A DNA stretch of 64,000 nucleotides from an uncultured Thermoleophilia bacterium. GTDB lineage: Bacteria > Actinomycetota > Thermoleophilia > UBA2241. Under the pieces are notes generated by a model. That model did not search any database and was not told the origin of the DNA. It was given only the letters and a program-made list of their open reading frames with translations. Both the position numbers and the translations under genes were made by a program. Location: contig CAVYDV010000007.1 in the NCBI GenBank assembly GCA_963767505.1, forward strand, positions 2,195-66,194. Reading direction: 5' to 3'. Below are positions 7,119 to 59,668 of the stretch, in pieces (the stretch's first letter is position 1; every line of letters begins with the position of its first letter).

Positions 7119-7216
7119 GGTCTCCTCGCACTTTACTGTACTCCATCGCTGTGGACTGGCCCAGACGCCACGACGATGCGGGTGGCCGATGAGCCCTCCC
7201 TTCCGCATAATGTGAG

Positions 7217-8038
7217 GTGATGCTGCACTATCCGGCCATATTCTTCGAGAGCGTGATCAGCGACGCTCAGCGGCCGCTGTTCTTCCTCCTCGTGGGCTTC
7301 CTCGTCACGTTCGGCCTGACGCGGCTGAGCACGCGCCTGGCGCGGGCGGGGGTGTTCTCAAGGCTGCGTCCCAGCAGCATAGTGACTACCGGAGGCCTGC
7401 ACATCCATCACGCGGTGTTCGGCATCGTCGGCATGGTCGCCTCAGGCATCCTGGCGTTCGCCTTCGACCTTCGCAGTCCATGGATCGAGATCCTGGCGTT
7501 TGCCTTTGGCGCCGGCGCCGCGCTCACGCTCGATGAGTTCGCCCTCATCCTGCACCTGGAGGATGTGTACTGGGCCGGTGAGGGACGTGCCTCCATCGAT
7601 GCCGTCATCTTGGGTGTGACGTTCGTCACGCTGCTTCTGACCGGGCTGCTCCCAAGGGGCGTCCACGAGGTGGCCGACTACGTCACGATCTCCCGCTGGG
7701 TCGGATTCACGCTGATCCTGGGCGGAACCGCATTCGTCGTTGTGAGCTACCTCAAGGGGAAGCTGTTCATGGGGACAGTCGGCATCTTCGTGCCGCTCGT
7801 CGCGATGATCGGCGCGGTGCGTCTCGCGAAGCCGAACTCGCCTTGGGCTCGGAGGCGCTACGCCGGCAACCCCGGCTTGCTTGATCGCGCGCGACGGCGT
7901 GACGAGGGCTTCCATCGTCGCTGGCTGCAGCGCAAACACCGCGTCTGGGACCTCATTGGCGGCAAGCCCCACCTGCGCATTCCGCGCGGCCCCGCGCCCC
8001 GCGCGAACCACGATCCTCGCGACGGCGATTCACGCTAG
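7217..8038 (+). CDS. Conserved actinobacterial-type integral membrane protein
   Basis: GGLHIHHAVFG, LTLDEFALILHLEDVYW, LKGK and RLAKPNSPWARRRY motifs; multiple TM segments. Confidence 0.75.
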   Translation: MMLHYPAIFFESVISDAQRPLFFLLVGFLVTFGLTRLSTRLARAGVFSRLRPSSIVTTGGLHIHHAVFGIVGMVASGILAFAFDLRSPWIEILAFAFGAGAALTLDEFALILHLEDVYWAGEGRASIDAVILGVTFVTLLLTGLLPRGVHEVADYVTISRWVGFTLILGGTAFVVVSYLKGKLFMGTVGIFVPLVAMIGAVRLAKPNSPWARRRYAGNPGLLDRARRRDEGFHRRWLQRKHRVWDLIGGKPHLRIPRGPAPRANHDPRDGDSR

Positions 8039-8101
8039 TCCGCGACGCGAGGGGCGCCTGGCCCGCGAGCGCTCGCTGGGCGGGCTGGCGGAATCGGCGC
8101 T

Positions 8102-43185: not shown

Positions 43186-43978
43186 TCAGGTCGCGCCCGT
43201 CGCGAGATCATCCACATCGTCTGCAGCTGTCGGGACCGCTTCCTTGGGCTGCACGATTCGCGCGATCGGGATGGAGACCTCGTAGAGGATCAGCATGGGA
43301 ATGAGCATGGCGATCATGGAGAAGGCGTCCTGGCCCGGCGTCAGCAGGGCGGCGAACAGGGCCATGATGACGATCGCGTAGCGGCGGTTCTTGCGCAGGA
43401 ACCTGTCGCTGATCACGCCGACCTTGGCGAGCAGCACGAGGACGACCGGCATCTCGAAGATGAGGCCGAAGGCGAGAACGAACAGGGCTACGAACGTGAA
43501 GTACTCGGTGGCCCGGTTCTGCACATTGAAGGTGTCGCCCCCGAAGTTGAGGAGAAACGTGAGGCCCTTGGGAAGGACGAAGAAGTACCCGAATGCGACG
43601 CCGCCGAGAAACAGCACACTGGTCGCCGCAACGACAGGGTAGAAGTACCGCTTCTCGCTGCTCGTGAAGGCCGGGCCGACGAACGCCCAGAGCTGCCAGA
43701 TGAGGAATGGGGAGGTCATGAGAAGACTCGCCACTACCCAGACCTTGAGGCTGACCATGAACGGCTCGATCGGGGCTGAGCGTGATGATCTGGTAGGAGG
43801 TGATATCCAGGCCGGGGACGTGCCTGAGCGGGTACAGAAGCAGGCTGAAGACGAAGTCGTTGAAGATGGCCGCCGCGATGACGCCGGCGACCAGGACCAC
43901 TACCACCCAGAACATCCGCTTGCGCAGCTCGTCCAGGTGCTCGAGGATGGTGAACCTGTCGTCGGGGCCGGCCGCCAT
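43186..43978 (-). CDS. tatC: Twin-arginine translocase subunit TatC; frameshift near 43770
   Basis: EHLDELRKR, WQLWAFVGP…EKR, FGLIFEMP, RRYAIV, ALLTP.D, LYEVSI. Confidence 0.93.
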
Positions 43979-43984
43979 GGCGCC

Positions 43985-44488
43985 TCAGGCGTCGCCGGGC
44001 GGGGAGGTCGTCGCGGATACGCTGGGCTCTGGGGGCGCCTCGGGACCCTCCGGCGCGTCTGCCGCGTCAGCTTCAGCCTCCTGCGGCCGTGTCGACGTCG
44101 CCTCGGCGGTGGCCTCCAGCGCCTCGGCCGTCTCGACTTCGGCGGCGTCTGCAAGCATCTCGTCCGCCTCCTTCGGCACGTCTCCCGCCGACGCTGCGCG
44201 CCGGCGGCCGGCAGAACGTCGATCGCCGCAGTGACGGCGTCATCGCCGGACTTCGCCGGCGCGGGCTGGTCGGCGGCCTTCATATCGATGCTGATGCTGG
44301 ACTTCAGGTCCTTGACGTCGGCGGCGACGTCGTCGATACCGAGCTCTGAACGTGCCGTCGATGTCGCCTTCTTGAGCTCCCGCATGGCCTGGCCGAGGCT
44401 GCGTCCCGCCTGTGGCAGCCGCTTGGGGCCGAACACGAGTAGGGCGAGGACGAGCACGATCAGCGATCTCCATGGGGCCGATGTTCAC
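43985..44488 (-). CDS. tatA: TatA/TatB family subunit with acidic tail; frameshifts near 44460 and 44195
   Basis: NIGPMEI…LALLVFGPKRLPQAGRSLGQAMRELKKA. Confidence 0.85.
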
Positions 44489-44760
44489 GGGTGGGTCCTT
44501 GCGTCGGGTATGAACCATCTCATCTTAGGCTGGCCCGGGAGGGCGGTCAACGCGGCACGCCCCGAACTGGCCTGGTTTGCCGCGGGGCCGCGTCGGTGCC
44601 GTGCGAGATAGCAAAGTACCTGCACGTCACGAGCGGCGCGGACGCGCGCCGCCGCTCCTGGGTACTTGCGCGGCGGAAGGTGTGTTGGTATGTTAGCGTC
44701 CTAGAGGCTCGCCCCGGTTCTTTCCGGTGCGGGTCCTGATTTTCCTCATGGCTGGTTCTG

Positions 44761-45129
44761 ATGACCGAAGCGTACCTCACCAACTGGCTGTACATCGGCC
44801 TCTTCATCGCCGCCGGCGGAGCTCTGGTCGTCCTCATCCTGGTGTTCTCCAAGCTGGTGAACCCACAGCACCTCACGCCGGAGAAGCTCGCCCCCTACGA
44901 GTGCGGCATTCCGCCGGTCGGGCGACCTTGGTCGCCGTTCGCCGTGCGCTACTTCGTGTTCGGCCTTCTCTTCCTCATTTTCGACGTCGAGGCCATCTTC
45001 CTGTTCCCCTGGGCGATCGTGTTTCGCGGCCTGGGGACGGCGGGGTTCATCGAGATGGCGCTCTTCGTCGCCGTCCTGGGCTTCGGGCTGGTCTACGCCT
45101 GGCGCAAGGGGGCTCTGGAGTGGGCATGA
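44761..45129 (+). CDS. nuoA: Complex I subunit A
   Basis: KLAPYECG, FLIFDVE.IFLFPWA, YAWRKGALEW. Confidence 0.95.
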   Translation: MTEAYLTNWLYIGLFIAAGGALVVLILVFSKLVNPQHLTPEKLAPYECGIPPVGRPWSPFAVRYFVFGLLFLIFDVEAIFLFPWAIVFRGLGTAGFIEMALFVAVLGFGLVYAWRKGALEWA

Positions 45130-45675
45130 CCGGCCGAGGTTCCGGCCAGGCCAGGCCGCGTTTTCCCAAGCTCGAGCACTTTCAGAAGCCGAACGTCATC
45201 ACGACGACCACCGACCTCATCTTCAGTTGGGCCCGCTCCCACTCCGTGTTCCCGTTCCAGTACGGACTGGCCTGTTGCGCCATCGAGATGCTGAGCTCCG
45301 GGTTCGCTCGCTTCGACATCGCCCGGCTACGGGATGGAGGTCTTCCGGCCGACTCCGCGGCAGAGCGATCTGATGATCGTCGCAGGCACGGTCAACGAGA
45401 AGATGGCTCCGGTACTCGAGCTGCTCTACCAGCAGATGTCGGAGCCCAAGTGGGTCGTCAGCATGGGTGCCTGCGCCAACAGCGGCGGGCCCTTCTACGA
45501 CGGCTACAACGTGGTCAACGGGGTCGACAAGGTCGTCCCGGTAGACGTCTACATCCCCGGTTGCCCGCCACGGCCGGAGGCGCTGTTCCAGGGGCTTCTC
45601 GAGCTGCAGAAGAAGATCCAGCGGCACTCGTTCGTTCCGGTCGCGCCTCCGGCGTCCGGCGACGGGGGAGGCTGA
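45126..45675 (+). CDS. nuoB: Complex I subunit B; frameshift near 45330
   Basis: [49 protein letters not shown]. Confidence 0.93.
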
Positions 45676-45680
45676 GGCTC

Positions 45681-46175
45681 ATGGCGCTCGAAGTCGGTGT
45701 CAATCCCATGGGGATAGATGCTATCGCCGAGCTCCTGGCGACCGCGTTTGCGGGCGAGCTGGAGGACGTGCGCGTGCAGGAGCCGGACACGGTCGTGGCG
45801 CGTTGCGCCAGGGAGAAGACCAAGGACGTGGCACGTCGCCTCAAGGCTCAGGATGACGTCGGCTACGGGACCCTCAACTGGATTGCCGGCGTCGATCGCG
45901 GGACGTGCCTGGAAAGCGTGTATCACCTGTACAGCTGGAAGACCAACAGCTATCTTCGGCTGCACGTCCAGCTGTCGTCGACAGACCCCGAGGTGGAGAC
46001 GGTCAGCGACATCTGGCCGGCGGCCGAGTGGCTCGAGCGCGAGGCGTGGGACATGTTCGGCATCCGCTACGTCGATCACCCCGACCTGCGCCGCATCCTG
46101 CTCAAGGACGACTTCGTCGGCCACCCGCTGCGCAAGGACTACGTCGACCTCGTCGAGAACCATCCGCATGCCTGA
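45681..46175 (+). CDS. nuoC: Complex I subunit C
   Basis: TVSDIWPAAEWLEREAWDMFGIRY.DHPDLRRIL…GHPLRKDY. Confidence 0.93.
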   Translation: MALEVGVNPMGIDAIAELLATAFAGELEDVRVQEPDTVVARCAREKTKDVARRLKAQDDVGYGTLNWIAGVDRGTCLESVYHLYSWKTNSYLRLHVQLSSTDPEVETVSDIWPAAEWLEREAWDMFGIRYVDHPDLRRILLKDDFVGHPLRKDYVDLVENHPHA

Positions 46176-47383
46176 CCAGCTTCGCGACAGCCGCTCCGGA
46201 TGAGGCGGTCCAGCTGGCGCAGCGGCGCATCGATGAGGCGTACGCCCGGGGCGAGGGGTCGAACCTCGAAGGCCTCAGGTTCAACGAGGTCATCGTCAAC
46301 ATGGGGCCGCAGCACCCCTCGACGCACGGCGTGTTGCGGCTGGTCGTCACTCTCGACGGCGAGCTCGTCAGGGACGTGATCCCCGTCGTCGGGTACCTTC
46401 ACCGCTGCAAGGAGAAGCTCGCCGAGAAGCGCACCTACTACCAGTACATCCCCATCACCGATCGCACCGAGTACCTTGCCGGGATGAACTGCGAGTGGGG
46501 ATACGTGATGACTGTCGAGAAGTTGGCCGGTATCCGGCCGACCCGGCGGGCGGAGTTCATCCGCGTCATCATGGCCGAACTCAATCGTATCGCCAGCCAC
46601 ATGGTCGCCATCGGCACGTTCACCGCCGACCTGGCGCCGCTGGGGACGGCCATGCTCTTCTATACGTTCCGCGACCGTGAGCTCATCCTCGATCTGCTGG
46701 AGGACGTGAGCGGCGCGCGCATGATGTTCAACTACTTCCGTTTCGGCGGGGTGCGCTACGACCTGCCGGATGGCTGGGTCGAGACGTGTCGCGACGTCAT
46801 GCGCAGGATGCCCAAGCTCATCGATGAGTACGAATCGCTCGTACAGGGCAACGCCATCTTCCTGCAGCGATGCGTCGGCAAGGGGGTGATCTCGCAGCAG
46901 GACGTGGTCGACTACGCGATCACGGGGCCGTGCGCGCGCGCCTCGGGCGTGCCCCACGACCTGCGCCGCACACGCCCCTACTCGGTCTATCCCGAGCTCG
47001 ACTTCGAGCTGCCGCTGGGCCAACATGGCGACGTCTTCGACCGCTACCAGGTGCGCGTGGACGAGATGCGCCAGTCGGTGAGGATCATCGAGCAGGCGCT
47101 CGACATGCTGCCGAAAGGCCCGGTTCAGATCGGCTCGCTGCGTGCACCCTACGCGATCACGCCGCCCCCCGGTGAGTGCTATGTGGGACAGGAGAACCCG
47201 CGCGGCGAGTACGGCACCTACATCGTGAGCGACGGCTCGCGCTACCCCTACCGGCTCAAGTACCGCGACCCCTGCTTCATGCACCTGCAGATATTCCCGA
47301 AGCTTCTGCGGGGCAACAGGATCGCCGACGCCGTCGCCATCTCAGGCAGCATGGACCTCGTCCTCGGAGGCATCGACAGATGA
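46168..47383 (+). CDS. nuoD: Complex I subunit D; start uncertain, probable frameshift near 46190
   Basis: NMGPQHPSTHGVLRL, GYLHR, ELNRIASH, GPCARASG, ENPRGE, DLVLGGIDR; no NiFe CxxC motifs. Confidence 0.93.
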
Positions 47384-48502
47384 ACGACCTCCTCACAGGC
47401 ATCCTGCGCGCGGTCCTGTTCGTGCTCATCGCCTACACGGTGGTCATGGTCTCCGCGCTGATCAACATCGTCTTCGAGCGCCGCGTCCTGGCCTTCATGC
47501 AGGACCGTCTGGGGCCCAACCGCACCGGCCCTCAGGGGCTGCTGCAGAGCGCCGCGGACGCCGTGAAGATGATGGGCAAGGAGGACTTCCGCCCCGCCCT
47601 CGCCGACCGGTATCTGTTCACGATGGCGCCCATGGTCGTGATGATCGGCGCCGTGGCGATCCAGACCGTCGTTCCCTACACGAAGGGACTCATGGCCACC
47701 GACCTCGATGTGGGCCTGGTCTTCATCGTCGCCATCACCGGCTTCACGACTCTGGCCATCCTTCTCGGCGGCTGGTCGTCGTGCAACAAGTACTCCCTCG
47801 TCGGCGCCCTGCGCGGCGCGGCGCAGATGATCAGCTATGAGATCCCGATGATCCTCAGCCTTCTGGTCGTCGCCATGCTCGTCGGCTCACTGCGGCTTGG
47901 CGAGGTCGTCGCGGCTCAGGACGGCTACCAGTGGCTCGTCTTCTATGCGCCGTTCACGTTCCTCATCTTCTACATCGCCTCGATCGCCGAGCTGAACCGC
48001 GGCCCGTTCGACCTGCCGGAGTCGGAGTCGGAGCTCGTCTCCGGCTACGGCACGGAGTACTCGGGCATGCGTTTCGGCATGTTCTATCTCAACGAGTTCG
48101 CAGGACTGACGGTCATGTCCATGATCGCTGTGACCCTGTTCTTCGGCGGATGGCACGGCCCCTTCGAAGATGCGATCCGCTTCTGGGGCGTCTCGTGGCT
48201 GCCGCTGGTGTGGTTTCTCATCAAGACATACGCTCTCGTCTTCCTCCTGATCTGGATCAGGACCTCGCTGCCACGTCTGCAGGTCGATCAGCTCATGGCC
48301 TTCGCCTGGAAGATCCTCATTCCGCTTGGCTTGGTCAACATCCTCGTGGCGGGCGCCGTGGTGCTCTGGGTGCCGCAGTGGAAGTGGGGCATGGCGGTCT
48401 TCAGCTGGCTGGCCCTTCTGGCCTTCGTCGCGCTCTTCGATCCCGATCCTCAAGTGGCGTCTGCGCAAGCGGCGCGTCCCGGTGCCGGTGGTGAGTGCCT
48501 GA
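47380..48502 (+). CDS. nuoH: Complex I subunit H; frameshift near 48440, true stop probably TGA 48500-48502
   Basis: ERRVLAFMQDRLGPNR, ADAVKMMGKE, NKYSL.GALR..AQMISYE, AELNRGPFDLPESESEL..GY.TEYSG. Confidence 0.93.
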
Positions 48503-49270
48503 TGCTCGGTATGTTCAAGGCCATGCGCACCACGATCCGGCATCTCCCGGCCAGGAAGATCACGGTGCAGTATCCCGAGCAGCGCGAGCGGCTGCCGGCG
48601 CGCAGCCGCGGCCTCTTCCGCGTCGTCGTCGACCCGGGCAGCGGCGACGCCCGCTGCCGGTCGTGCACGCTCTGCGAGACGAACTGCCCCGTGCAGGTGA
48701 TCCGCGTGGAGCACACCAGCAAGTACGAGCTTCCGGCGCCCAATCTGGCGCGGATCTCCCGGGCGCGTCTCGCCGCTCAGCCCAGCATCGACCTCGACAT
48801 GCTGCAACCGGTGCTCGATGACTTCTACGAGCACGGCACGGGGCTCATCGCCATCCTGCAGAACACGCAGGATGTGTATCGGTACCTGCCGCGCCGGGCC
48901 CTCGAGGAGATCTCCCTGCAGACTGGCGCCTCCCTCTCACACATCTACGGCGTCGCAAGCTTCTACAACCAGTTCCGGCTCTCACCGGTCGGTGACCACA
49001 TCGTCGAAGTGTGCCACGGCACGGCCTGCCACGTCGCCGGGTCACGGAAGATCGCCGAGGCTCTCGAGGAGGAGCTCGGCGTCCCCGAGGGCAAGACCAC
49101 GGAGGACATGAAGTTCACGCTCTGCGTCGGTGGCCTGCATGGGGGCGTGCTCGCAGGCTCCCGTCATGCGTATCGGTGACCTCACCTACGGGGGGCTCAC
49201 GCCGGACAAGACACGCCAGATCATCCGCGGCATGCTGGCGCGAGGTCGAAGCGGAGAAGGGCCGAGCTGA
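48502..49270 (+). CDS. nuoE: Fusion of the N-terminal half of NuoI to NuoE/HydC-like [2Fe-2S] subunit; frameshift near 49125, end uncertain
   Basis: MLGMFKAMRTTIRHL…ITVQYPEQR…RSRG…CRSCTLCETNCP (NuoI-N) is in frame with LIAILQNTQ..YRYLP…GVASFYNQF…VCHGTACHVAG…ACMGAC (NuoE). Confidence 0.85.
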
Positions 49271-49277
49271 AGGCGCC

Positions 49278-51173
49278 GTGACCGACACGACGCGACACGA
49301 CTCGAGACCCCAGGCCGAGGGGCGGAACGTGCGCGTCGCCGGGGTCGCCGGCGGTGGCTACCGCGTCACGGTCTGCGCGGGCACCGCGTGCACGTTCGCC
49401 GGCTCACCGGCTGTGCAAGAGGCGTTCTTGCAGGAAGTGCAGGCCGCGGGTCTCGGTGACAAGGTCGAGGTCTCAATCATCGGGTGCCACGGCCTGTGCT
49501 CGATGAGTCCGGTCGTCGTGCTCAGCGACGATACGTTGTACGGGCACCTGCGGCCTGAGGACGTCGGCAAGGTCGTCGAGGAGCACCTCAGAGGCGGTGT
49601 CCCGGTCGAGAAGTTCCTGTACAAGGACCCGCACACGGGCGCCCGTGTGCGCGACTGGCACGACATCGATTTCTACCGGGAGCAGACGCGCATCGCGCTG
49701 CGCAACGTCGGCATGGTCAATCCCGAGAGTATCGATGAGTCCGTCGCCCGCGGCGGGTATGCGGCGGCTCGCATGGTGCTCACCGAGAAGACGCCGGAGT
49801 GGGTGGTGGCGCAAGTCACAGACTCCGCGATCCGCGGTCGCGGAGGTGCCGGGTTCTCGACGGGCGTCAAGTGGAAGTTCGCCCAGCAGTCACGGAGCGA
49901 GGTGAAGTACATCATCTGTAACGGCGACGAGGGCGACCCCGGGGCCTTCATGGACGCGTCGATAATGGACGGCGACCCTCACACGGTCATCGAGGGCATG
50001 ATCATCGGCAGCTACGCGATCGGAGCGCACGAGGGCTACATCTACGTGCGGGCCGAGTACCCACTCGCGGTCAGACGCCTGACCATGGCGATCGCCGACG
50101 CCGAGGCGGCCGGCTACCTCGGCGCCGACATCTTCGGGAGCGGCTGGGACTTCAGCTTGAAACTCAAGCTCGGCGCAGGCGCCTTCGTCTGCGGGGAGGA
50201 GACGGCCCTGATCGCCTCGATCGAGGGCCGGCGCGGCATGCCGCGCACACGGCCGCCGTTCCCTGCGGTCAGCGGCCTGTGGGGCAAACCGACCAGCATC
50301 AACAACGTCGAGACGTTCGCCAATATCCCGTGGATCGTGACCCACGATGCCGCGGACTACGCCCAGCTCGGCGTGGAAGGCTGTCATGGAACGAAGGCCT
50401 TCAGCCTCGCCGGCAAGGTCGTCAACGGTGGCCTCGCGGAGGTATCCATGGGCGTCACGCTGCGCCATGTCATCTTCGACATCGGCGGTGGCATCAGTGA
50501 CGGGCGGGAGTTCAAGGCCGTGCAGCTCGGCGGACCGTCGGGCGGATGCGTCCCGGCGAGCATGCTCGACACGCCGGTGGACTACGAGAGCCTTGCGGCG
50601 ACGGGCGCCATGGTGGGATCGGGCGGCATCGTCGTGGTCGACGATCAGACGTGCATGGTCGATGTGGCGCGCTTCTTCCTCCACTTCACACAGAGCGAGT
50701 CCTGCGGCAAGTGCGTGCCTTGCCGGCTTGGGACCAAGCGCATGCTCGACATCCTTGATCGCATCGTCTCCGGCGAGGGACGTGAGGGCGACGTCGAGCT
50801 GCTCGAGGAACTCAGCGGCTACGTCATGGAGGGCAGCCTGTGCGCCCTTGGGGGTACAGCGCCCAACCCTGTGCTTACCACCATCAAGTACTTCCGCAAG
50901 GAGTACGAGGCGCATGTCAACGAGAAGCGTTGTCCGGCGGGGAAGTGCAAGCCTCTCATCCGCTACACGATAGATGCGGAGGCCTGCACCGGCTGCACGC
51001 TCTGCGCCAAGAAGTGCCCCGTCGGCTGCATCACGGGCGAGCGGAAGCTGACCCACGTGATCGACCAGGACGCCTGCATCAAGTGCGACACCTGCCGCCA
51101 GGTGTGCAAGTTCGACGCGGTGCGCGTCCTGTCTGGCATCGAGCAGCCGGCGGCCGTCGGTGGGGAGGCGTAG
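49278..51173 (+). CDS. nuoF: NuoF/HydB-type flavoprotein with N-terminal [2Fe-2S] and C-terminal 2x[4Fe-4S] domains
   Basis: CAGTAC…GCHGLC, RGRGGAGF.TG.KW, CNGDEGDPGAFMD, GAFVCGEETAL, ESCGKCVPCRLG, SLCALG, H…RCPAGKC, two CxxCxxCxxxC motifs. Confidence 0.92.
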   Translation: MTDTTRHDSRPQAEGRNVRVAGVAGGGYRVTVCAGTACTFAGSPAVQEAFLQEVQAAGLGDKVEVSIIGCHGLCSMSPVVVLSDDTLYGHLRPEDVGKVVEEHLRGGVPVEKFLYKDPHTGARVRDWHDIDFYREQTRIALRNVGMVNPESIDESVARGGYAAARMVLTEKTPEWVVAQVTDSAIRGRGGAGFSTGVKWKFAQQSRSEVKYIICNGDEGDPGAFMDASIMDGDPHTVIEGMIIGSYAIGAHEGYIYVRAEYPLAVRRLTMAIADAEAAGYLGADIFGSGWDFSLKLKLGAGAFVCGEETALIASIEGRRGMPRTRPPFPAVSGLWGKPTSINNVETFANIPWIVTHDAADYAQLGVEGCHGTKAFSLAGKVVNGGLAEVSMGVTLRHVIFDIGGGISDGREFKAVQLGGPSGGCVPASMLDTPVDYESLAATGAMVGSGGIVVVDDQTCMVDVARFFLHFTQSESCGKCVPCRLGTKRMLDILDRIVSGEGREGDVELLEELSGYVMEGSLCALGGTAPNPVLTTIKYFRKEYEAHVNEKRCPAGKCKPLIRYTIDAEACTGCTLCAKKCPVGCITGERKLTHVIDQDACIKCDTCRQVCKFDAVRVLSGIEQPAAVGGEA

Positions 51174-51180
51174 GGAGACG

Positions 51181-53667
51181 ATGGCCGCCGCCGCAGACAA
51201 CAGGCACACGCCGGCCCATCCCGGCCAGGTGACAGTCGTCATCGACGGACAGGACGTGGCGTGCGATCACGGCGAGACCGTGCTCACGGCCGCGCGGCGC
51301 GTCGGCATCCACATCCCGACGATGTGCCTCGAGGCGCGGCTGCACCCCCTGGGCGCCTGTCGCATCTGCATCGTGGAGGTGGAAGGCGCACGCAAGGTGA
51401 TGACGAGTTGCACGACGGCCGTCGCTGAAGGCATGGTGGTGCGAACCGACACCGAGAGGGTGCGCGCCATGCGCCACCTCTACCTCGAACTCCTGCTCAG
51501 CGATCACAACTCCTTCTGCACGCCGCCGTGTCGCGATGCCTGCCCGACCCACATCAAGATCCCGCAGTTCCTCGACTTCATTGCGCAGCAGGACTACGAG
51601 AGCGGCGTGCGCAAGCTCCGCGAGGACCTGCCGTTTCCCGCTACTCTGGGGCGCGTCTGCCCGCGGCCTTGCGAAGGCCCGTGCCGCCGGCAGCTCGTCG
51701 ATCAGTCCATCACGATCTGCCAGCTCCATCGCTTCATGGCCGATCAGTGTCTCGAGGGGGAGCAGGAGGGCGAGTTGCTGCTGCCGAACGAGCCCAAACC
51801 GGAGAGCGGCAAGCGCATCGCGATCGTGGGCGCGGGGCCGGCCGGCCTCTCCGCCGCCTTCTATGCTCGACTCGAGGGGCATGCGGTCAAGATCTTTGAA
51901 GCCTTGCCCAAGCCGGGCGGCATGCTCCGCTACGGCATCCCGAGTTACCGTCTGCCGCGAGACGTCCTCGACAGGGAGATCAACGTCCTGTGGCGCATGG
52001 GCGTCGAGCTCCAGACGGACAGCCGCCTGGGGGTCGACTTCCAGATCGAGGAGTTGCTCGCGGACTATGACGCCGTCTTCCTCGCCTTGGGCGCCTTCAA
52101 CAGCAACGCCATGCGCATCCCGGGTGAGGACGCCGACGGTGTCGTGACCGCCGTCGACTTCCTCGGCGAGCTGGAGCGCGACGGGGAAGTGCACGTCGGC
52201 GAGAAAGTCACAGTCATCGGTGGCGGCTTCACCGCGATGGATGCCTGCCGCACCTCTATTCGCAAGGGCGCCAAAGAGGTGACCTGCCTCTATCGTCGCT
52301 CGCGCGAGGAGATGCCCGCGCATCGCAGCGAGGTCGACGAGGCCGAGGAGGAAGGCGTCAAGCTTGAGCTCTTGTGTGCTCCCGTGCGCGTCGTCACTGG
52401 GCGCCTTCACCGCCATTCCGGGAGCAGGGTGACGGGCATCCAGATGCTTCGTATGGAGCTGGGCGAGCCGGACGAGTCGGGCCGCCGCCGTCCAGTGCCC
52501 GTGGAGGGCTCCGAGTTCATCGTCGAGTGCGATCAGGTGATCGTCGCCATCGGCCAACACCCGAAACTCGACGGTACCAGCGAGGAGCAGGGCGTAGCGC
52601 GCACCAAGTGGCGCACGCTCAAGGTAGATGACTGGACATTCCAGGCCGCCGACCCACGCGTGTTCGCCGGAGGCGACGTCGTGCTCGGTGCACAGACCGT
52701 GATCCAGGCGGTGGCGCAGGGTAAGAAGGCGGCCTGGAGCATGGACGCCTTCCTGCGCGGCGCGGACATGGCCGACGTATCCAGGCAGCTGATGCAGCTC
52801 AAGTCGACTCCGTTCGTGGAGGCTCTGGCGGCCAAGCACAAGGTCGACCCGGATATCGTGCGCATGGCGGAGATCCCCCCGGTGTTCATCGACATGGCCA
52901 CGGACGTGAGCCGGCCCTGTCCGCCGTCGGAGATGCCCAAACTGGCGGCCGGCGAGCGGAGCGGGACTTTCGAGCAGATAGAGCTCGGCTTCGGCGAAGA
53001 GCAAGCCATGGAGGGCGCGGCACGCTGTCTCGACTGCTACTGCCCCTCGAACGGCACCTGCGACCTGCAGCGGTACGGCATCGAGTATGAGGTGTTCAGG
53101 AACCGCTTCCACGGCGGAGACGCTCACGACTACCCTGCCGACTTCCGTCACGATTTCATCATGCGCGAGCCCAATCGGTGCATCGACTGTGGACGCTGCG
53201 TGATCGTCTGCGGCGAAGAAGTCGGGGCGAGCTGCTACGCCAACATGGGCCGCGGATTCGACATGATCGTCAGCACGGCCGACAACCTGCCCCTGCAGAT
53301 GGTGGGCTGCGTTTCGTGTGGCAAGTGCGCCGAGACATGCCCGACGGGCGCGATCGTCACGAACCCGCGCCGCCTGCAGCGATACGGTCTCGACGAGAGC
53401 CGGTGCATGTTCTGCGGGGAGTGCGTCGAGGTCTGCCCGTACGGTGCACTGGAGCAGGCCAGCTTCTTCGAACTCGCCGACTTCAGCAGGACGGCCCTTG
53501 CCGGCGCGTCGCTCTACGAGCGGGACCCCCGCTCTGCCGAGGCGCCGCGAAAGTCAGTGACCGATCTGGTCCCCCACGTCCTCGCGGCGGAACTGGGACA
53601 AGGCTGGGTCTGGTCGCCCATCAAGGACGATCCCGTCGACCTCGACGAAGGGGAGGATGAGGGCTGA
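51181..53667 (+). CDS. NuoG-N-terminal / GltD(NfnA/SfrB-like) FAD-NADPH oxidoreductase fusion carrying the C-terminal half of NuoI
   Basis: [2Fe-2S] domain; PPCRDACP, GRVCPRPCE..C, IVGAGPAGL, GGGFTAMD…YRRS, FAGGD; RCLDCYC….CDLQ; three CxxCxxCxxxC motifs, the last followed by NuoI-like 'ALEQASFFELADFSR'. Confidence 0.88.
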   Translation: MAAAADNRHTPAHPGQVTVVIDGQDVACDHGETVLTAARRVGIHIPTMCLEARLHPLGACRICIVEVEGARKVMTSCTTAVAEGMVVRTDTERVRAMRHLYLELLLSDHNSFCTPPCRDACPTHIKIPQFLDFIAQQDYESGVRKLREDLPFPATLGRVCPRPCEGPCRRQLVDQSITICQLHRFMADQCLEGEQEGELLLPNEPKPESGKRIAIVGAGPAGLSAAFYARLEGHAVKIFEALPKPGGMLRYGIPSYRLPRDVLDREINVLWRMGVELQTDSRLGVDFQIEELLADYDAVFLALGAFNSNAMRIPGEDADGVVTAVDFLGELERDGEVHVGEKVTVIGGGFTAMDACRTSIRKGAKEVTCLYRRSREEMPAHRSEVDEAEEEGVKLELLCAPVRVVTGRLHRHSGSRVTGIQMLRMELGEPDESGRRRPVPVEGSEFIVECDQVIVAIGQHPKLDGTSEEQGVARTKWRTLKVDDWTFQAADPRVFAGGDVVLGAQTVIQAVAQGKKAAWSMDAFLRGADMADVSRQLMQLKSTPFVEALAAKHKVDPDIVRMAEIPPVFIDMATDVSRPCPPSEMPKLAAGERSGTFEQIELGFGEEQAMEGAARCLDCYCPSNGTCDLQRYGIEYEVFRNRFHGGDAHDYPADFRHDFIMREPNRCIDCGRCVIVCGEEVGASCYANMGRGFDMIVSTADNLPLQMVGCVSCGKCAETCPTGAIVTNPRRLQRYGLDESRCMFCGECVEVCPYGALEQASFFELADFSRTALAGASLYERDPRSAEAPRKSVTDLVPHVLAAELGQGWVWSPIKDDPVDLDEGEDEG

Positions 53668-54179
53668 TGCCGGGCGGCGACTTCCATCCGTGGCTGTTCG
53701 TCATCGTCGCCGCATGGGTGCTGGTCTGCGCAGTCGGCGTCGTCGCGTCGAGAAAGATCATGTACTCCGCCGTCTCCATGGTGTTCTGCTTTCTCGGCGT
53801 TGCGTTCGCCTACGCCCTCCTCCACGCCGAACTGATCGCCATCATGCAACTCCTGGTCTACGTGGGCGCCATCTCGATCGTCATCATCTTCGCGATCATG
53901 CTCACCGAGGCCCAGGGTGGCGTCTACCGGCTGTTCTTCAACCGTCAGGCCATCGCCGCTGGCGTGCTGGCGGCCGTCGTCGCCGCGGCACTCGTCGCGG
54001 CCATCGCCACGGCCGATATCGGCAAGATCGATGACATCACGCTCAACCCCGGCGTCAGAGAGCTGTCCACCATCCTCTTCAACCGCTACGTGTTTCCGTT
54101 CGAGCTCATCTCGCTGGTGTTGCTCGCGGCCATGATCGGCGCCATCGTCCTGGCTCGCAGAGAGGAGGGACCGCGGTGA
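53667..54179 (+). CDS. nuoJ: Complex I subunit J
   Basis: AELIAIMQLLVYVGAI.IVIIFAIMLT, YVFPFELISLVLLAAMIGAIVLAR. Confidence 0.93.
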   Translation: MPGGDFHPWLFVIVAAWVLVCAVGVVASRKIMYSAVSMVFCFLGVAFAYALLHAELIAIMQLLVYVGAISIVIIFAIMLTEAQGGVYRLFFNRQAIAAGVLAAVVAAALVAAIATADIGKIDDITLNPGVRELSTILFNRYVFPFELISLVLLAAMIGAIVLARREEGPR

Positions 54180-54484
54180 ATCCCCTCGCCTGGTGGCTCG
54201 TTCTGGCCGCGTTGCTGTTTTGCATCGGCGCCTTCGGAGCCTTGGCGCGGCGCAACGTGATCGTCGTCGTCATGAGCCTCGAAATCATGCTCAGTGCGGT
54301 CAATGTCGCGCTCGTCGCCACAGCCTCGTTTCGCACCGGCGTCCCCGGCGGGGGCACGCTGTTCGCGCTGTTCATCATCGCTCTCGCCGCCGCCGAGGTC
54401 ACGGTCGGCATGGCGATCGTGATCGCCAACTACCGTCACCAGCGAACGGTCCAGGTCGACCAGTACGACGAGCTCAAGGGCTGA
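54176..54484 (+). CDS. nuoK: Complex I subunit K
   Basis: LFCIG…RRN…MSLEIML.AVN, AAAEVTVGMAI, LKG. Confidence 0.95.
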   Translation: MNPLAWWLVLAALLFCIGAFGALARRNVIVVVMSLEIMLSAVNVALVATASFRTGVPGGGTLFALFIIALAAAEVTVGMAIVIANYRHQRTVQVDQYDELKG

Positions 54485-54509
54485 TGGGCGTGGGCTTGGG
54501 GGGGACGCC

Positions 54510-56405
54510 ATGAAGGGGATCGTCGCGCTCATCCCGCTGCTGCCGCTGATTGGCTTCCTCTTCACGCTGCTCTTCGGGAAGCGCCTTCGGCAGCAGGCGC
54601 ATGTACTGCCGACGGCGCTCGTCACCGGCTCGGCCGCGCTGTGCATCGCCGCGTTCGTGTGGGTCCTCCGGCACGACGGAGAGCCCTTCCTCTTCCGGCC
54701 GTTCACCTGGATCACGGCCGGCGCCTTCGATCTGCAGTGGGGCTTCCAGGTCGACGGTCTGACCGGCATCATGCTGCTGGTCGTCGGCCCGATCGGCATG
54801 CTCGTGCACTACTACTCCATCGGCTACATGCGGGATGACCCCGGCTACTACCGCTTCTTCGCCTATCTGAACCTCTTCATGTTCGTGATGTTCATGCTCA
54901 TCCTGGCCGACAACTACCTCGTGATGTTCCTGGGTTGGGAGGGGGTCGGCCTCTGTTCCTACCTCCTGATCGCATTCTGGTACCGCAAGCAGAGCGCCAG
55001 CCAAGCGGGGAAGAAGGCCTTCCTGGTCAACCGCGTCGGCGACTTCGGCTTCACGCTGGGCATGTTCCTCATCTTCGTGACGACCGGGACACTGCAGTTC
55101 ACGGGCGTGTTCGAGCGGGCCGACGCCGGCGAGATCGGCGCCAGCACGCTGACCTGGATATGCCTGCTGCTCTTCGTGGGGGCCGTGGGCAAGAGCGCCC
55201 AGTTCCCACTGCACGTCTGGCTCCCTGATGCGATGGAGGGTCCCACTCCGGTGAGCGCCCTCATCCACGCCGCCACCATGGTCAACGCCGGTGTCTACAT
55301 GGTGGCGCGCTCCTACCCGCTCTTCCTGCATTCCGAGGCCGCGATGGTGGTCGTCATGGTCATCGGCACCTTCACCGCGATCTACGCTGCGTACATCGCC
55401 CTCACGCAGCACGACATCAAGAAGGTGATCGCATATTCGACGATCTCCTCGCTCGGTTTCATGTTCATGGCGCTGGGCGCCGGGGCGTGGGTGGCCGGGG
55501 TCTTCTACCTCTTCGCTCACGGCTTCTTCAAGGGCCTGCTCTTTCTCTGCTCCGGGTCGGTGATCCACGCGATGTCGGGCGAGCAGGACATGCGGCGTAT
55601 GGGCGGTCTGCGCCGGGCGCTCCCCGTCACTTTCTGGACCATGCTGATCGGCGCCTTGGCGATGGTCGGAGTGATTCCTCTGGCGGGCTTCTGGGCCAAG
55701 GACGAGATCCTGGCCGGCGCCTTCCACCAGTCTGTCCTGGTCTGGGTCGTGGGCATCATCACGGCCTTCCTCACCTCGATCTACATGTTCCGTCTGATGT
55801 TCATGACCTTCTGGGGCGAGAGCCGAGCCGATGAGACAACGCGGGCGCACGTACACGAGTCATCCGCGGTGATGACTGTGCCGCTCGTCCTGCTTGCGGT
55901 ACCTGCTGCGTTGCTCGGTCTCGTCGTGGGCTGGCCGCCCGAGGGCGGATGGATCTACGGGTTCCTGGAGCCCGTGTTCTTCGAGCTCGAGCATGAGGAG
56001 TTCCACTGGCTGGGATCGGGCGGGCTGCTCATGCTGGTCTCGCTCGTCGTGGTGTTGCTTGGTATCGCCGTCGCCTACAGGCTCTATGTCAGCCACGTCG
56101 AGGCTCCGGATCGCCTCGCTCGGCGGCTTCCGCGGGCGTACACGGCGTCGCTCAACAAGCTCTACATGGACGAGGTCTACGAGGTCGTCCCGATCCGCAG
56201 CACCCTCGCCACGGCGAGCTGGCTCTGGACGTTCATCGACGTCAAGGTGATCGACGGCGCGGTGAACGGCATCGCCGCGCTGTGGGAGTTGTTCGGCGAG
56301 CGACTGCGCCCCCTGCAGACAGGACGCGCACAGAACTACGCGTTGTACACGCTGATCGGGACGCTGATCCTCCTCGTTGTCCTGGCCTGGATATGGGTGG
56401 TGTGA
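54510..56405 (+). CDS. nuoL: Complex I subunit L
   Basis: YSIGYM, GWEGVGLCSYLLI, NRVGDFG, GKSAQFPLHVWLPDAMEGPTPVSALIHAATMV, DIKKVIAYST, QTGRAQNY. Confidence 0.96.
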   Translation: MKGIVALIPLLPLIGFLFTLLFGKRLRQQAHVLPTALVTGSAALCIAAFVWVLRHDGEPFLFRPFTWITAGAFDLQWGFQVDGLTGIMLLVVGPIGMLVHYYSIGYMRDDPGYYRFFAYLNLFMFVMFMLILADNYLVMFLGWEGVGLCSYLLIAFWYRKQSASQAGKKAFLVNRVGDFGFTLGMFLIFVTTGTLQFTGVFERADAGEIGASTLTWICLLLFVGAVGKSAQFPLHVWLPDAMEGPTPVSALIHAATMVNAGVYMVARSYPLFLHSEAAMVVVMVIGTFTAIYAAYIALTQHDIKKVIAYSTISSLGFMFMALGAGAWVAGVFYLFAHGFFKGLLFLCSGSVIHAMSGEQDMRRMGGLRRALPVTFWTMLIGALAMVGVIPLAGFWAKDEILAGAFHQSVLVWVVGIITAFLTSIYMFRLMFMTFWGESRADETTRAHVHESSAVMTVPLVLLAVPAALLGLVVGWPPEGGWIYGFLEPVFFELEHEEFHWLGSGGLLMLVSLVVVLLGIAVAYRLYVSHVEAPDRLARRLPRAYTASLNKLYMDEVYEVVPIRSTLATASWLWTFIDVKVIDGAVNGIAALWELFGERLRPLQTGRAQNYALYTLIGTLILLVVLAWIWVV

Positions 56406-56406
56406 C

Positions 56407-57993
56407 GTGAACTGGCAGGAGCAGATCGGTTTCCCGATCCTCTCGGTCATCACCTTCCTGCCGCTCGCGGGCGTGCTCCTGATCCTGCTGGTCGGCCGCG
56501 GCCGACCCTCTGTGTACAAGGGCATCTCGCTGCTGGTCACGCTGGGAGCCTTCGCGCTGGCCCTGCTCATGTTGGCGGTCTTCGACACCGAGGCGCGAGG
56601 CATGCAGTTCGTCGAGGATCTCGCCTGGGTCCCGGCCCTGAACATCCACTACGGGCTCGGCATCGACGGCATCAGCGCGCTCCTCGTGTTTCTCACAGCG
56701 CTGCTCGGGGTGGTCGTCATCGTCGCGAGCTGGCACTACGCCAAGGATCGCGAGATGGGGTTCTTCATCTCGCTGCTGCTCCTGCAGGTCGGCATGGTCG
56801 GGGTCTTCTGCGCCACGGACCTCTTCCTCTTCTACGTGTTCTGGGAGGCCATGCTGGTGCCGATGTACTTCATCATCGGCATCTGGGGTGGGCCGCGACG
56901 CATCTACGCTGCCATCAAGTTCTTCCTCTTCACCCTCGTCGGCAGCCTGCTGATGCTCGTCGCCATGATCGTCGTCGTCTACTACGTCAACGACGCCACC
57001 GGAGTGCTCACGTTCAATATCCGGGAGTTGAGCGAGCAGATCTATCCCTACCGGCTCCAGTTCTGGGCCTTCCTCGCGTTCTTCCTGGCGTTCGCCATCA
57101 AGGTGCCGATGTTCCCCCTCCACACTTGGCTGCCCGACGCTCACGTCGAGGCGCCGATGGCGGGTTCGGTGCTCCTGGCCGGTGTGCTGTTGAAGATGGG
57201 GGGATACGGCATGCTCCGCTTCTGCCTTCCCTTCTTCCCTGATGCCGCAGTGGCGTTTGCCCCGTACATCATCGTCCTCTCGGTGATCGCCATCCTGTAC
57301 GGCGCTCTGGTGTCGCTGGTGCAGAAGGACCTCAAGAAGCTCGTCGCCTACTCGAGCGTCAGTCACATGGGCTTCGTGACTGCGGGCATCTTCGCCTCGA
57401 TCGCGGTCGCCGGGAACGCCATCGGCATGGAGGGCGCCATTCTGGTGATGTTCAACCACGGCGTCCTCACCGGCGCGCTCTTCCTCCTGGTCGGCTTCCT
57501 GTACGAGCGCACGCGTACGCGTCAGATAGCTGACATGGCCATGCTGGCGACGCCGATGCCGGTGGCTGCGGGGTTCCTGCTGTTCTTCTCCCTCGGCTCC
57601 CTCGGCCTTCCCGGCCTGAGCGGGTTCGTGGGCGAGTTCCTCAGCCTTCTCGGGCTGTTCCAGTACTCCTACTGGTTGACGGCGCTGGCGGCCCTCGGTG
57701 TGATCCTCGCCGCCGCCTATCTTCTGTGGATGTTCCAGCGCGTGATGTTCAACGATCGCGGCGTCGACGCGGTGACGCCCTCGGCTGGTCTGAGCGACCT
57801 CGGCGTCCGCGAGATCGTGTCGCTGCTGCCCCTGGTCGTGCTGGCCGTCTGGGCGGGCGTGTACCCGAACACCTTCCTCGACTTCCTGCATGTGCCGGTG
57901 CAGGAGATCCTCGACGAGGTCATGCCGTCGCTGGAGAGCGCTCGAACGAGCGGGCTGGCTCAGCTCATCGCCGGGGCGAAAGGGCACTTCTGA
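56407..57993 (+). CDS. nuoM: Complex I subunit M
   Basis: LGIDGIS, FYVFWEAMLVPMYFIIGIWG, AIKVPMFPLHTWLPDAHVEAP, LLKMGGYG, GLPGLSGFVGEF. Confidence 0.96.
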   Translation: MNWQEQIGFPILSVITFLPLAGVLLILLVGRGRPSVYKGISLLVTLGAFALALLMLAVFDTEARGMQFVEDLAWVPALNIHYGLGIDGISALLVFLTALLGVVVIVASWHYAKDREMGFFISLLLLQVGMVGVFCATDLFLFYVFWEAMLVPMYFIIGIWGGPRRIYAAIKFFLFTLVGSLLMLVAMIVVVYYVNDATGVLTFNIRELSEQIYPYRLQFWAFLAFFLAFAIKVPMFPLHTWLPDAHVEAPMAGSVLLAGVLLKMGGYGMLRFCLPFFPDAAVAFAPYIIVLSVIAILYGALVSLVQKDLKKLVAYSSVSHMGFVTAGIFASIAVAGNAIGMEGAILVMFNHGVLTGALFLLVGFLYERTRTRQIADMAMLATPMPVAAGFLLFFSLGSLGLPGLSGFVGEFLSLLGLFQYSYWLTALAALGVILAAAYLLWMFQRVMFNDRGVDAVTPSAGLSDLGVREIVSLLPLVVLAVWAGVYPNTFLDFLHVPVQEILDEVMPSLESARTSGLAQLIAGAKGHF

Positions 57994-59572
57994 TGGACGC
58001 CAACAACTCGCTGGCGATCATCCTGCCGGGCGTCGTCGTGGCGCTGGCGGCCGTCGCCGTCTTCGCTGTGGATCTCATCACGCGCAGGAAGTCTGTGCTG
58101 GCGTGGGTGGCCAGCGCCGGACTCATCGCCGCCGCGGCAGTCGCGGTCGGCCAATGGCTCGCGCTTTCGGAGTCTTCACGGGGTGGCGGTGGGCGCGACC
58201 CCGAGGTCGGCTTCGCCGGTATGGTCGCGCTCGACAAGTACGCCGTGTTCTGCGTGGTGCTCTTCGCCGTCATCGGTGTGCTCAGCATCATGCTCTCGGA
58301 TTCGTATCTGGCACGACGCCGGGCCGCGCGGGGCGAATTCTACGGGCTTCTTCTGCTCGTCATCACCGGGATGATCGGCATGGTGGTGAGCACGGATCTC
58401 ATCGCCTTCTTCATCTCGTTCGAGCTGATGTCGCTGCCGACGTACGTACTTGCCGGCTACCTCTGGCGCCAGGAGCGCTCTGGAGAGGCGTCGCTCAAGT
58501 ACTTCGTCACCGGAGCCTTCTCGTCCGCCATCCTGGCGTTCGGCCTGGCGCTGGTCTATGCAGCGACGGGCCAGACGAACTACGCGGCGATCGCCGAGGG
58601 CCTGGGCGTCCTGGAGGCGATTCGACGCCCGCGGGCTGCTCGTCGCGGCGCTCGCCCTCGTCGTGACCGGCTTCGGCTTCAAGATCTCGGCCGTTCCCTT
58701 CCACGCCTGGGCGCCGGACGTCTATGAAGGAGCCCCTACGCCGGTTACGGCCTTCATGTCAGTCGGCGTCAAGGCTGCCGCCTTCGCCGGGTTCGCCAAG
58801 CTGTTCGTCACCGCGCTTGGCCCCGAGTGGGCCACCTGGGTCGATGCTCTGATCATCCTGGCCGTGCTGACGATGGTCGTCGGCAACGTGCTCGCCCTGC
58901 CGCAGCGCAATCTCAAGCGCATGCTGGCCTACTCGAGCATCGCGCACGCCGGGTATCTGACGCTCGGCCTGGTCGCTGCGGGCGGGCCGGGGGGCCGACT
59001 CGGCATGTCTGCCATCCTCTTCTACCTGGCGGCCTACGCATTCATGAACCTGGGTGCTTTCGGCGTTCTCATCTGGATCCGGAACCGGCGCCCGTTCCGC
59101 TACACGCTCGACGAGGTGAGCGGGCTTGCCCGCAGCATGCCCTGGGCGGCGCTCTTCACGGTGTTTTTCATGGTGTCGCTCGCCGGCATCCCGCCGACGA
59201 TCGGCTTCTGGGGCAAGTTCTACCTGTTCACGCGCAGTCGTGCAAGGCGGGTACACATGGCTCGCCATCCTCGCCGTGGTCATGAGCTCGGTGTCCGCCT
59301 TCTACTATCTGCGCGTCGTCTGGCACATGTACTTCAAGGAGGCTCCCGAGGGCGCTGTCGCGGGCGTTGCGGAGTCGGAGGCGGAGTCGGGCGCCGAGTC
59401 GGGGCCTTCGGTCTCGGCGGAGACCGGCGATGGGGTCGAGCCTCGGACGTCCGAGGTCGGCGTCGTCGCCGCGGTCAGCCTGGCCGCCGCCGCCGTGCTC
59501 GTCCTCGGTGTCTTCCCGGAGTGGCTGCTGAGCTCGGCCGAGGATGCCGTGAGGTTGATCCTCGGCGGGTGA
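57993..59572 (+). CDS. nuoN: Complex I subunit N; frameshifts near 58620 and 59232
   Basis: [85 protein letters not shown]. Confidence 0.93.
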
Positions 59573-59668
59573 CCTCCGGTCCTCCGAGTCGCTGAGGCCA
59601 AGCCCTGCTCTCCGCGTCGCACACTCCGGACACCGCGCTTCGTGCGCCGCCGCTGGTACACTGAGACG

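Follow-up and report, generated by a model that had tools for sequence, protein, structure and literature searches.

The complex I operon in the window, a stretch of 64,000 nucleotides from contig CAVYDV010000007.1 of an uncultured Thermoleophilia bacterium (assembly GCA_963767505.1), encodes its NuoI subunit as two halves carried by two different proteins. Searches with NCBIfam models and by tblastn with intact orthologues gave the gene order nuoA-B-C-D-H-[NuoI-N::NuoE]-NuoF-[2Fe2S/GltD/NuoG-FeS::NuoI-C]-J-K-L-M-N, with all genes on the + strand; the interval between nuoD and nuoH was free of nuoE, nuoF and nuoG, and nuoI was not present in the operon as a gene of its own. An earlier note on this DNA had described the order A-B-C-D-H-[..]-J-K-L-M-N without a standalone nuoI, in agreement with these searches, and had interpreted it as an insertion into the NuoI loop with in-frame fusions, an interpretation supported by the data presented below. 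Both junctions are in frame, so that the N-terminal half of NuoI forms the N-terminus of a NuoE-like subunit and the C-terminal half lies in the C-terminal region of a GltD-containing subunit. The reading of these sequences that we consider probable is of an 11-subunit-type complex I operon in which nuoI is interrupted by an Nfn-Bfu/Stn cassette and in which the two halves would re-form the NuoI fold across chains.

The N-terminal half is carried by a fusion gene (48502..49270, + strand) consisting of the NuoI N-half, a linker and NuoE, of which intact orthologues are 253 amino acids in length and which in the window is broken within NuoE at ~49123. Translation from the ATG at 48502 opens with MLGMFKAMRTTIRHLPARKITVQYPEQRERLPARSRGLF...CRSCTLCETNCP, and the half contains the ITVQYPE and RSRG segments as well as the first CxxCxxCxxxCP motif, which runs from C52 to P63 (48655-48690). 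Residues 8-74 of the fusion matched positions 2-66 of the 121-position TIGR01971 NuoI profile at 51.5 bits, with NuoI as the top family, and the half maps to 48523..48723 on the + strand (50-51.5 bits). All 32 of the 32 PDB matches of this piece at E <= 0.01 were to NuoI/NDUFS8/Nqo9 proteins, always to their first half. The N-half is followed by a linker of ~35 residues that leads in frame into the NuoE domain, and no second Cys motif was found upstream of NuoE in any of the three frames. The location of the N-half with its first Cys motif at ~48655-48690 and the lack of a second motif before NuoE had both been put forward in the earlier note and are borne out here.

The missing half was found on the NfnA/StnC-like, GltD-containing subunit (51181..53667, + strand), for which the open reading frame opens at GTG 51160 whilst the alignment with orthologues begins at ATG 51181. 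The domain order of this protein is [2Fe-2S], an inserted GltD-like FAD/NAD(P)H domain, a HydA/NuoG-type 2x[4Fe-4S] domain, the NuoI C-half and a conserved tail. Three ferredoxin-type motifs, CIDCGRCVIVC, CVSCGKCAETCP and CMFCGECVEVCP (motifs A, B and C), can be read in the 51160-53667 frame, and the protein ends with YGLDESRCMFCGECVEVCPYGALEQASFFELADFSR directly 5' of nuoJ. Motifs A and B have HydA/NuoG spacing and lie within a match to NF009454 that ends at residue 686; they therefore account for the HydA/NuoG-type domain and leave motif C as an orphan. This third motif is the second CxxCxxCxxxCP motif of NuoI (~53404-53439) and is followed by FELA. The C-half (53362..53499, + strand; residues 735-780) matched positions 69-114 of the 121-position TIGR01971 profile, at 54.5 bits for the isolated piece and 39.7 bits in the genome scan, and NuoI ranked first in NCBIfam, ahead of HycF (47.6 bits) and FdxA_fam (45.1 bits). 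The best single-stretch PDB match of the C piece was residues 90-134 of 163 of the NuoI chain 8qby_I, at 41 bits. Both the placement of the missing half at the C-terminus of a G-like subunit before nuoJ and the count of three ferredoxin motifs in that subunit are as previously claimed. The tail that follows the C-half (53530-53664, residues 791-835) reads DLVPHV...G.GW.W.PIKDDP; its residues G813, G815, W818 and P820 are invariant in 35 sequences and it has no family match.

The NuoI profile is thus divided in the inter-motif loop into segments 2-66 and 69-114, with nothing lost or doubled, and the alignment of both pieces to the model, suggested earlier as a check, showed complementary halves of the 121 positions. 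Both the NuoI-specific N-terminal segment and the post-motif FE(L)A segment are present and the profile is covered by the two pieces, whilst the two CxxCxxCxxxCP motifs lie on different proteins. The position of NuoI in the operon is also kept, as the N-half begins at the nuoH stop and the protein bearing the C-half ends at the nuoJ start. At both places there are TGATG stop/start overlaps, between nuoH and the fusion (48500-48504) and between the GltD subunit and nuoJ (53665-53669), the former being present in the related genome G007 too. These overlaps suggest that the genes may be translationally coupled.

NuoI is among the most conserved core subunits of complex I, and an intact copy elsewhere in the genome had been named as a point to check. 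No NuoI above the TIGR01971 cut-off of 113.05 bits was found in the window genome (G000; 2.54 Mb, 8 contigs, 77.7% complete), nor in G007 (100% complete), G002 (98%), G010 (95%) or G004 (93%), and in each of these four the contig with the nuo operon carries the two halves only. One of the five good-quality genomes of the same genus, G001, has both halves and an intact NuoI at 155 bits. The latter sits in a second, canonical nuoB-C-D-E-F-G-H-I-L-M-N operon, L032 (G001:C23:14000-32000). NuoB, NuoD and NuoH of the canonical and split operons of G001 share 43-57% identity (NuoD 43%, NuoH 47%). The second-best match to the NuoI model in the window genome (G000:C1:23065-23322) was rejected as NuoI, because it belongs to an HdrA-like flavoprotein that contains a complete dicluster (2x[4Fe-4S]) domain. 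The gene for this flavoprotein, at 1189-2590 of L002 (G000:C1:21565-24822), is split over two frames in this assembly.

To the cassette between the halves belong, besides the NuoE part of the fusion, a NuoF-like subunit and the GltD subunit. The NuoF-like gene (49278..51173, + strand, start codon uncertain) is of the HydB/BfuB type and its product has, by Pfam, an N-terminal thioredoxin-like [2Fe-2S] domain, an FMN/NADH domain, the N3 cluster and a C-terminal 2x[4Fe-4S] domain; its score with TIGR01959 was 490.7 bits against a cut-off of 558.65. The main text of Schut et al. (2022, PMC9304861) defines the Bfu family by the HydB/BfuB make-up together with a NuoE-like [2Fe-2S] BfuC. The corresponding domains of a BfuBC core are present here, with PF01512, PF10589, two copies of PF00037 and PF01257 on the NuoF-like protein and PF01257 on the fusion. 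The GltD subunit matched PF13510, PF14691, PF07992 and PF22117, and matched NF009454 over residues 23-686 at 627.2 bits, which is under the curated cut-off of 916. It carries the motifs HNSFCTPPCRDACP and CLDCYCPSNGTC, which fit the HxxxCxxxCxxxCP and CxxCxCxxxxC motifs given for Stn and Nso in the relevant passages of PMC7483475. The features of an Nfn-Bfu/Stn A subunit, namely the [2Fe-2S] domain, the GltD-like insert, both Cys motifs and the NuoG-type Fe-S domain, were all found. As judged from these domains and motifs, the cassette is an Nfn-Bfu/Stn-type NAD(P)H/ferredoxin module and not a canonical NuoEFG. The earlier description of an EFG-like cassette in the NuoI loop was therefore right as to a three-gene module in the inter-motif loop, but the module is of the Nfn-Bfu/Stn type with a GltD domain.

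A search of other genomes for the same fusions had been proposed earlier, and they are widespread in family f1. Intact operons occur in G007 and G002, which have the same gene order as the window with every gene open, a fusion of 253 amino acids and a GltD protein of ~824 amino acids. In a genus sample of 18 genomes the fusion was found over the whole query in 12, in pieces in three and not at all in three. A class sample comprised 301 genomes; matches to the fusion that reach from model position 1 to at least position 250, counted as full-length, were present in 48 of them, all in family f1 (48 of 56 f1 genomes), and a partial fusion was detected in four more f1 genomes, G000 among them. The fusion was not found in the f1 genomes G009, G017, G142 and G189 (76-89% complete), which lack both halves. 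The nuo-type C end was present in 67 of the 81 genomes of a family sample. The N fusion alone was seen in three genomes (G179, G199 and G184), in each of which a contig end lies within 3.4 kb of it. Across a phylum sample of 401 genomes the junction query was matched at full length only in G000 and G031, the others giving NuoI-length matches only; the unpublished genomes in this sample (G445, G602, G384, G308 and G618) are counted only among those without a junction match. Among metagenome proteins there were 1218 homologues of the fusion at E <= 1e-5, 115 of the best 120 being 251-253 amino acids in length, and 1096 homologues of the C end, the best 120 of which were 71-95% identical. Residues C52, C55, C58, C62 and P63 of the N-half are invariant in 32 sequences, and residues C749, C752, C755, C759 and P760 of the C-half are invariant in 35 sequences (alignment A2).

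The best 79 genome loci all came from uncultured metagenome-assembled genomes (MAGs), mostly labelled Thermoleophilia or Actinomycetota. Database names for the fusion are 'NADH-quinone oxidoreductase subunit E' and 'NAD(P)H-dependent oxidoreductase subunit E [Thermoleophilia bacterium]', and for the GltD subunit 'FAD-dependent oxidoreductase [Thermoleophilia bacterium]', so that current names hide the apparent lack of nuoI in such genomes. Names given to the GltD subunit by JGI include 'formate hydrogenlyase subunit...', indicating that automatic annotation had picked up the NuoI/HycF-like end. In several public gene calls (P0140, P0148, P0228 and P0241-P0244) the C end is fused to NuoJ (PF00499), or NuoH to the fusion; these probably represent read-through at the 1-nucleotide overlaps or at indels. 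Five proteins with longer forms of the N-half (426-648 amino acids, E <= 1e-8), four including NuoH and four including NuoE, likewise look like read-through calls and were set aside. A candidate third type of paralogue (residues 8-206, 37-38% identity) proved to be of the por type described below, its locus L092 having porA upstream. A search of the representative library with the C end gave 5171 matches at E <= 0.001, of which eight were at E <= 1e-30; beyond proteins of nuo-type and por-type length, no further partner fusions were recognized among the best 150, many of which were polyferredoxins.

A second context for the cassette was found in PFOR operons. Seven por loci from families f1 and f4 were examined, and all seven share the order porG-porD-porA-[NuoI-N-like::NuoE]-NuoF-[2Fe2S/GltD/Fe-S+NuoI-C-like::PorB], the cassette sitting between porA and porB. 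The N-half of this type matched positions 28-63 of the NuoI profile (28-30 bits, the top five families all being NuoI), the C-half matched positions 69-120 (51.2 bits), and the last subunit is fused to PorB (343.7 bits). The por copy lacks the first ~25 residues, whereas the nuo copy keeps the full NuoI N-terminus (profile 2-40). In the class sample the por type occurs in families f1 and f4 and the nuo type in f1 only. Loci of the por type are L023 (G001:C27:74000-90000, minus strand), L025-L030 and L092.

A reduced and deeply divergent nuo-embedded form was found in family f6. In G023 the locus (L031, G023:C22:13000-31000, positions 4754-8871, minus strand) has the order nuoB-C-D-H-[NuoI-N::NuoE remnant::NuoF, 602 amino acids]-[2Fe2S/GltD/Fe-S::NuoI-C, 770 amino acids]-J-L-M-N. 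In the 602-residue protein NuoE is a helical remnant, there is no PF01257 and there are no extra Bfu domains, and visual inspection of this single sequence suggests degenerate FMN/NADH motifs; the GltD subunit, at 770 amino acids, is complete. In G028 and G035 the NuoI-N match lies inside open frames of 607 and 614 amino acids. The Cys residues and the Pro of the orphan motifs are kept in both the f6 and por versions, whilst the conserved C-terminal tail of the window protein was not seen in either.

Several genes of the window are interrupted by single-base differences. The nuoE part of the fusion is frameshifted at ~49123, with PF01257 positions 10-107 in one frame and 109-143 in the next. 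In nuoH an extra base at 48445 shifts the last ~18 codons and produces an apparent read-through into NuoI-N; the frame-2 tail ILKWRLRKRRVPVPVVSA* matches the C-termini of orthologues, and the true stop, TGA 48500-48502, overlaps the next ATG. Contigs of ~95%-identical strains, from runs X1 and X2 of one study and X3 of another, are shorter than the window by exactly one base at each of positions 48445 and 49123. Further bases are left out in the related contigs at 43770, 44080, 44095 (two bases), 44463, 45325/45327, 46179, 58619 and 59232, and beyond these places there are 17 further indels between the window and the related contigs. Since the related contigs do not have the extra bases, the indels of the window represent private insertions or errors and are not part of the architecture. 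Their number suggests an indel-prone assembly, which may explain the 77.7% completeness of this 8-contig MAG. Misassembly at the junctions, a possibility raised earlier, is contradicted by independent contigs of related strains that span both (X2 record 9 corresponds to 43500-49941 and record 13 to 50867-56943). The earlier claim of in-frame junctions stands for both NuoI halves, although nuoE itself is frameshifted in the window at ~49123.

Taken with the distribution data, the two halves suggest how the complex might be assembled. The orphan halves, each on its own polypeptide, would come together to re-create the ferredoxin fold of NuoI, and in each of the clusters N6a and N6b three Cys ligands would be supplied by one chain and the fourth by its partner. 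We infer such assembly of N6a and N6b in trans from the eight invariant Cys residues, from the joint occurrence of the halves and from a complex prediction that gave a weak score. In the latter, residues 655-835 of the GltD subunit with NuoI-N residues 1-100 and four 4Fe-4S clusters scored 0.46, the best of three controls scoring 0.00; across the runs contact agreement was at least 67% and partner pLDDT at least 52. Among solved complexes, 58 of 80 attained the pass mark, as did two of 110 mismatched pairs, although at scores of 0.60 or less just seven of the 80 solved complexes passed, along with both passing mismatches. The rebuilt domain would wire the Fe-S chain of the GltD subunit to cluster N2 and clamp the module onto NuoB (which bears N2), NuoD and NuoH. 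The predicted function is that of a proton-pumping quinone reductase to which NAD(P)H would donate electrons at the GltD-type FAD; their passage to menaquinone would power the pumping of protons. NADH at the FMN, and perhaps ferredoxin through the Bfu core, may serve as further donors in family f1.

A number of observations weigh against a NuoI rebuilt from two chains. Each half scores far under the NuoI cut-off (51.5 and 54.5 against 113.05 bits), and the C piece is the less specific of the two, with generic ferredoxin families close behind NuoI; the comparison proposed earlier, of NuoI with generic ferredoxins, thus placed NuoI at the top for this motif, but by a small distance from HycF and FdxA. 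Summed PDB scores of the C piece are highest for polyferredoxins, which is explained by repetition of the motif in those proteins. The score of 0.46 is weak and may be driven by likeness to solved NuoI structures, and in Pfam a single dicluster domain, PF12838 (residues 717-763), takes in both motif B and motif C. As assembled, moreover, the window copy is frameshifted in at least four genes (nuoB, nuoH, nuoE and nuoN). Together with the 77.7% completeness of the MAG, these frameshifts might suggest an assembly artefact or a decaying pseudogene cluster, an explanation to which we attach virtually no probability and which, for the architecture, is already refuted by the intact operons of the same order in G007 and G002, the 48 full-length fusions in 56 f1 genomes, the 1218 and 1096 metagenome homologues, and the contigs from three runs that bridge the junctions without the extra bases. 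The PF12838 match makes pairing of motif C in cis with the preceding motif formally possible. The half-motifs would then be unpaired across chains, motif C pairing within its own chain or binding no cluster, the N-half being a vestigial anchor and N2 being reached otherwise or not at all. A B-to-C spacing of ~21 residues, like that of clostridial ferredoxins, and the weak complex prediction agree with such an arrangement. We nevertheless judge it improbable, as motifs A and B alone make a complete HydA/NuoG-type domain, as they do in relatives without motif C, so that motif B has no free ligands; neither orphan motif varies in its four Cys or its Pro (in 32 and 35 sequences, respectively), the f6 and por versions retain these residues, and the halves are gained and lost together across genomes.

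The origin of the arrangement can be read in two ways that lead to the same structure. A cassette with an already split NuoI-like ferredoxin could have existed as a portable module, for example in a PFOR operon, and replaced nuoI by recombination; this reading is favoured by the wider spread of the por-type copy (f1 and f4, against f1 only for the nuo type) and by the finding that seven of seven por loci have, between porA and porB, a cassette of the same make-up, [N-half::E]-F-[G::C-half]. We consider such a replacement rather unlikely, since the halves in both contexts match NuoI best and not PorD or generic ferredoxins, the nuo copy has the full NuoI N-terminus (profile 2-40) of which the por copy has lost the first ~25 residues, the cassette lies exactly at the nuoI position between nuoH and nuoJ, and a third, deeply divergent nuo-embedded form exists in f6. 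A single insertion into the inter-motif loop of nuoI, followed by copying into the por operon, would require the fewest steps and is the most economical of the possible histories; it fits the fuller NuoI N-terminus of the nuo copy, and the wider spread of the por type would be compatible with the reverse order.

Comparison with known systems places the operon between several of them. 11-subunit complex I (NUO11/NDH-1 type) reportedly has an intact NuoI and no dedicated flavoprotein module in its operon. Once the cassette is removed the order here is that of such an enzyme, A-B-C-D-H-I-J-K-L-M-N, without nuoEFG between nuoD and nuoH. The halves share with canonical NuoI/Nqo9/NDUFS8 (TYKY) the N-terminal segment, R-x-RG, both CxxCxxCxxxCP motifs, FE(L/M)A and the nuoH-nuoJ position, but canonical NuoI is one polypeptide of 140-230 amino acids whereas here there are two, with 4.6 kb of other coding sequence between them. 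Nuo-Bfu, as presented in the main text of Schut et al. (2022, PMC9304861), is a predicted complex I with a BfuABC input module from Deferribacteres, Proteobacteria, Planctomycetes and Nitrospirae. The two have in common a complex I-like quinone reductase, a Bfu-type NADH module, a HydB-like NuoF with extra Fe-S domains and the placement of the module genes inside the nuo cluster. In the operon described here, by contrast with that account, the module lies after nuoH and inside nuoI, NuoI is split and a GltD-type FAD/NAD(P)H domain forms part of the A subunit; the 14 subunits, intact NuoI and NuoG-type BfuA of Nuo-Bfu were not found. The words 'NuoI' and 'Actinobacteria' have 0 occurrences each in the main text of PMC9304861.

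The cassette itself resembles NfnABC/Stn/Nso (Kremp 2020, PMC7483475; Xiao 2025, PMC12018979) in its NuoE-like subunit, HydB/NuoF-like subunit and NuoG N-terminal region with a GltD insert, and in the Cys motifs shared with Stn/Nso, NF009454 being the best NCBIfam match. As those enzymes are presented in the relevant passages of these papers, they are soluble, use free ferredoxin and have no NuoI-like half, unlike the cassette here, and in place of the large molybdopterin-like C-terminal part found in StnC, the A subunit here has the NuoI C-half at its end. Predicted PFOR-Bfu (Por-Bfu) enzymes, mainly of Chloroflexi and Proteobacteria, are likewise noted in the main text of Schut et al. (2022, PMC9304861). 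The paralogous loci described above also join porG, porD, porA and porB with a Bfu module; they differ from Por-Bfu, so far as that text describes it, in having an Nfn-type module with GltD between porA and porB, NuoI-like halves and a PorB fusion. Nuo-Bfu, Por-Bfu and Nfn-Bfu have each already been predicted or characterized. No description of a split NuoI, of an Nfn-type module in a nuo operon or of such a cassette in Thermoleophilia was found in the literature searched, supplementary tables such as those of PMC9304861 being outside the scope of the search, and within that scope the earlier suspicion that the architecture is undescribed holds.

If two polypeptides do make up the NuoI ferredoxin fold, then a heterodimer of halves is a workable form of the pseudo-symmetric 2x[4Fe-4S] fold, and split NuoI would be a natural counterpart to the half-ferredoxin ideas on the origin of the fold set out in the relevant part of PMC12648291. 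It would also seem that 11-subunit complex I acquired a flavoprotein input module on a path separate from that of canonical NuoEFG, the module having entered a gene instead of settling next to one. The predicted enzymes would be a complex I possibly able to take electrons straight from NADPH, and perhaps from ferredoxin too, and a PFOR hard-wired to an Nfn-type module, both in abundant uncultured soil and sediment Actinomycetota. More tentatively, and with a little less than even confidence, the split ferredoxin may be regarded as a portable, self-assembling plug that has been used at least twice in Thermoleophilia, in complex I and in PFOR, yielding in the former a proton-pumping, NADPH-accepting quinone reductase whose GltD/NADPH path, to judge from the f6 form, may be its conserved core.

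The remaining genes of the operon encode the complex I membrane subunits A, H, J, K, L, M and N and the Q-module subunits B, C and D, all of which were recognized with NCBIfam or tblastn. On the + strand, nuoA (44761..45129) was 83% identical to G002 NuoA over 122 of 122 residues and is followed by nuoB (45120..45657), which is broken by an indel at ~45325-45327 so that tblastn with G007 NuoB placed residues 1-69 in frame 3 and residues 70-179 in frame 1, and NCBIfam recognized just a NuoB fragment. Next on the same strand are nuoC (45681..46172; TIGR01961 NuoC_fam 119 bits, tblastn 163 of 164 residues), nuoD (46172..47383; NF004739 NuoD 453 bits against a cut-off of 360, 89% identity to G007 NuoD) and nuoH (47380..48502; PF00146 373 bits, NF004741 336 bits against a cut-off of 305). 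Of the N2 and quinone-site motifs, the G007 orthologues have the tandem CC, GACA and GCPP of NuoB and the QHPSTHG and GYLH of NuoD, so that the Q-module looks normal there. Downstream of the cassette, again on the + strand, lie nuoJ (53667..54179; NF005168 107 bits, tblastn 170 of 170 residues), nuoK (54176..54484; NF004320 104 bits, cut-off 57), nuoL (54510..56405; NF005141 745 bits, cut-off 556) and nuoM (56377..57993; TIGR01972 601 bits, cut-off 263.8). The last gene, nuoN (57993..59595, + strand), is broken by indels at ~58619 and 59232, with TIGR01770 positions 2-193 and 204-400 in different frames and the tblastn pieces in frames 3 and 1.

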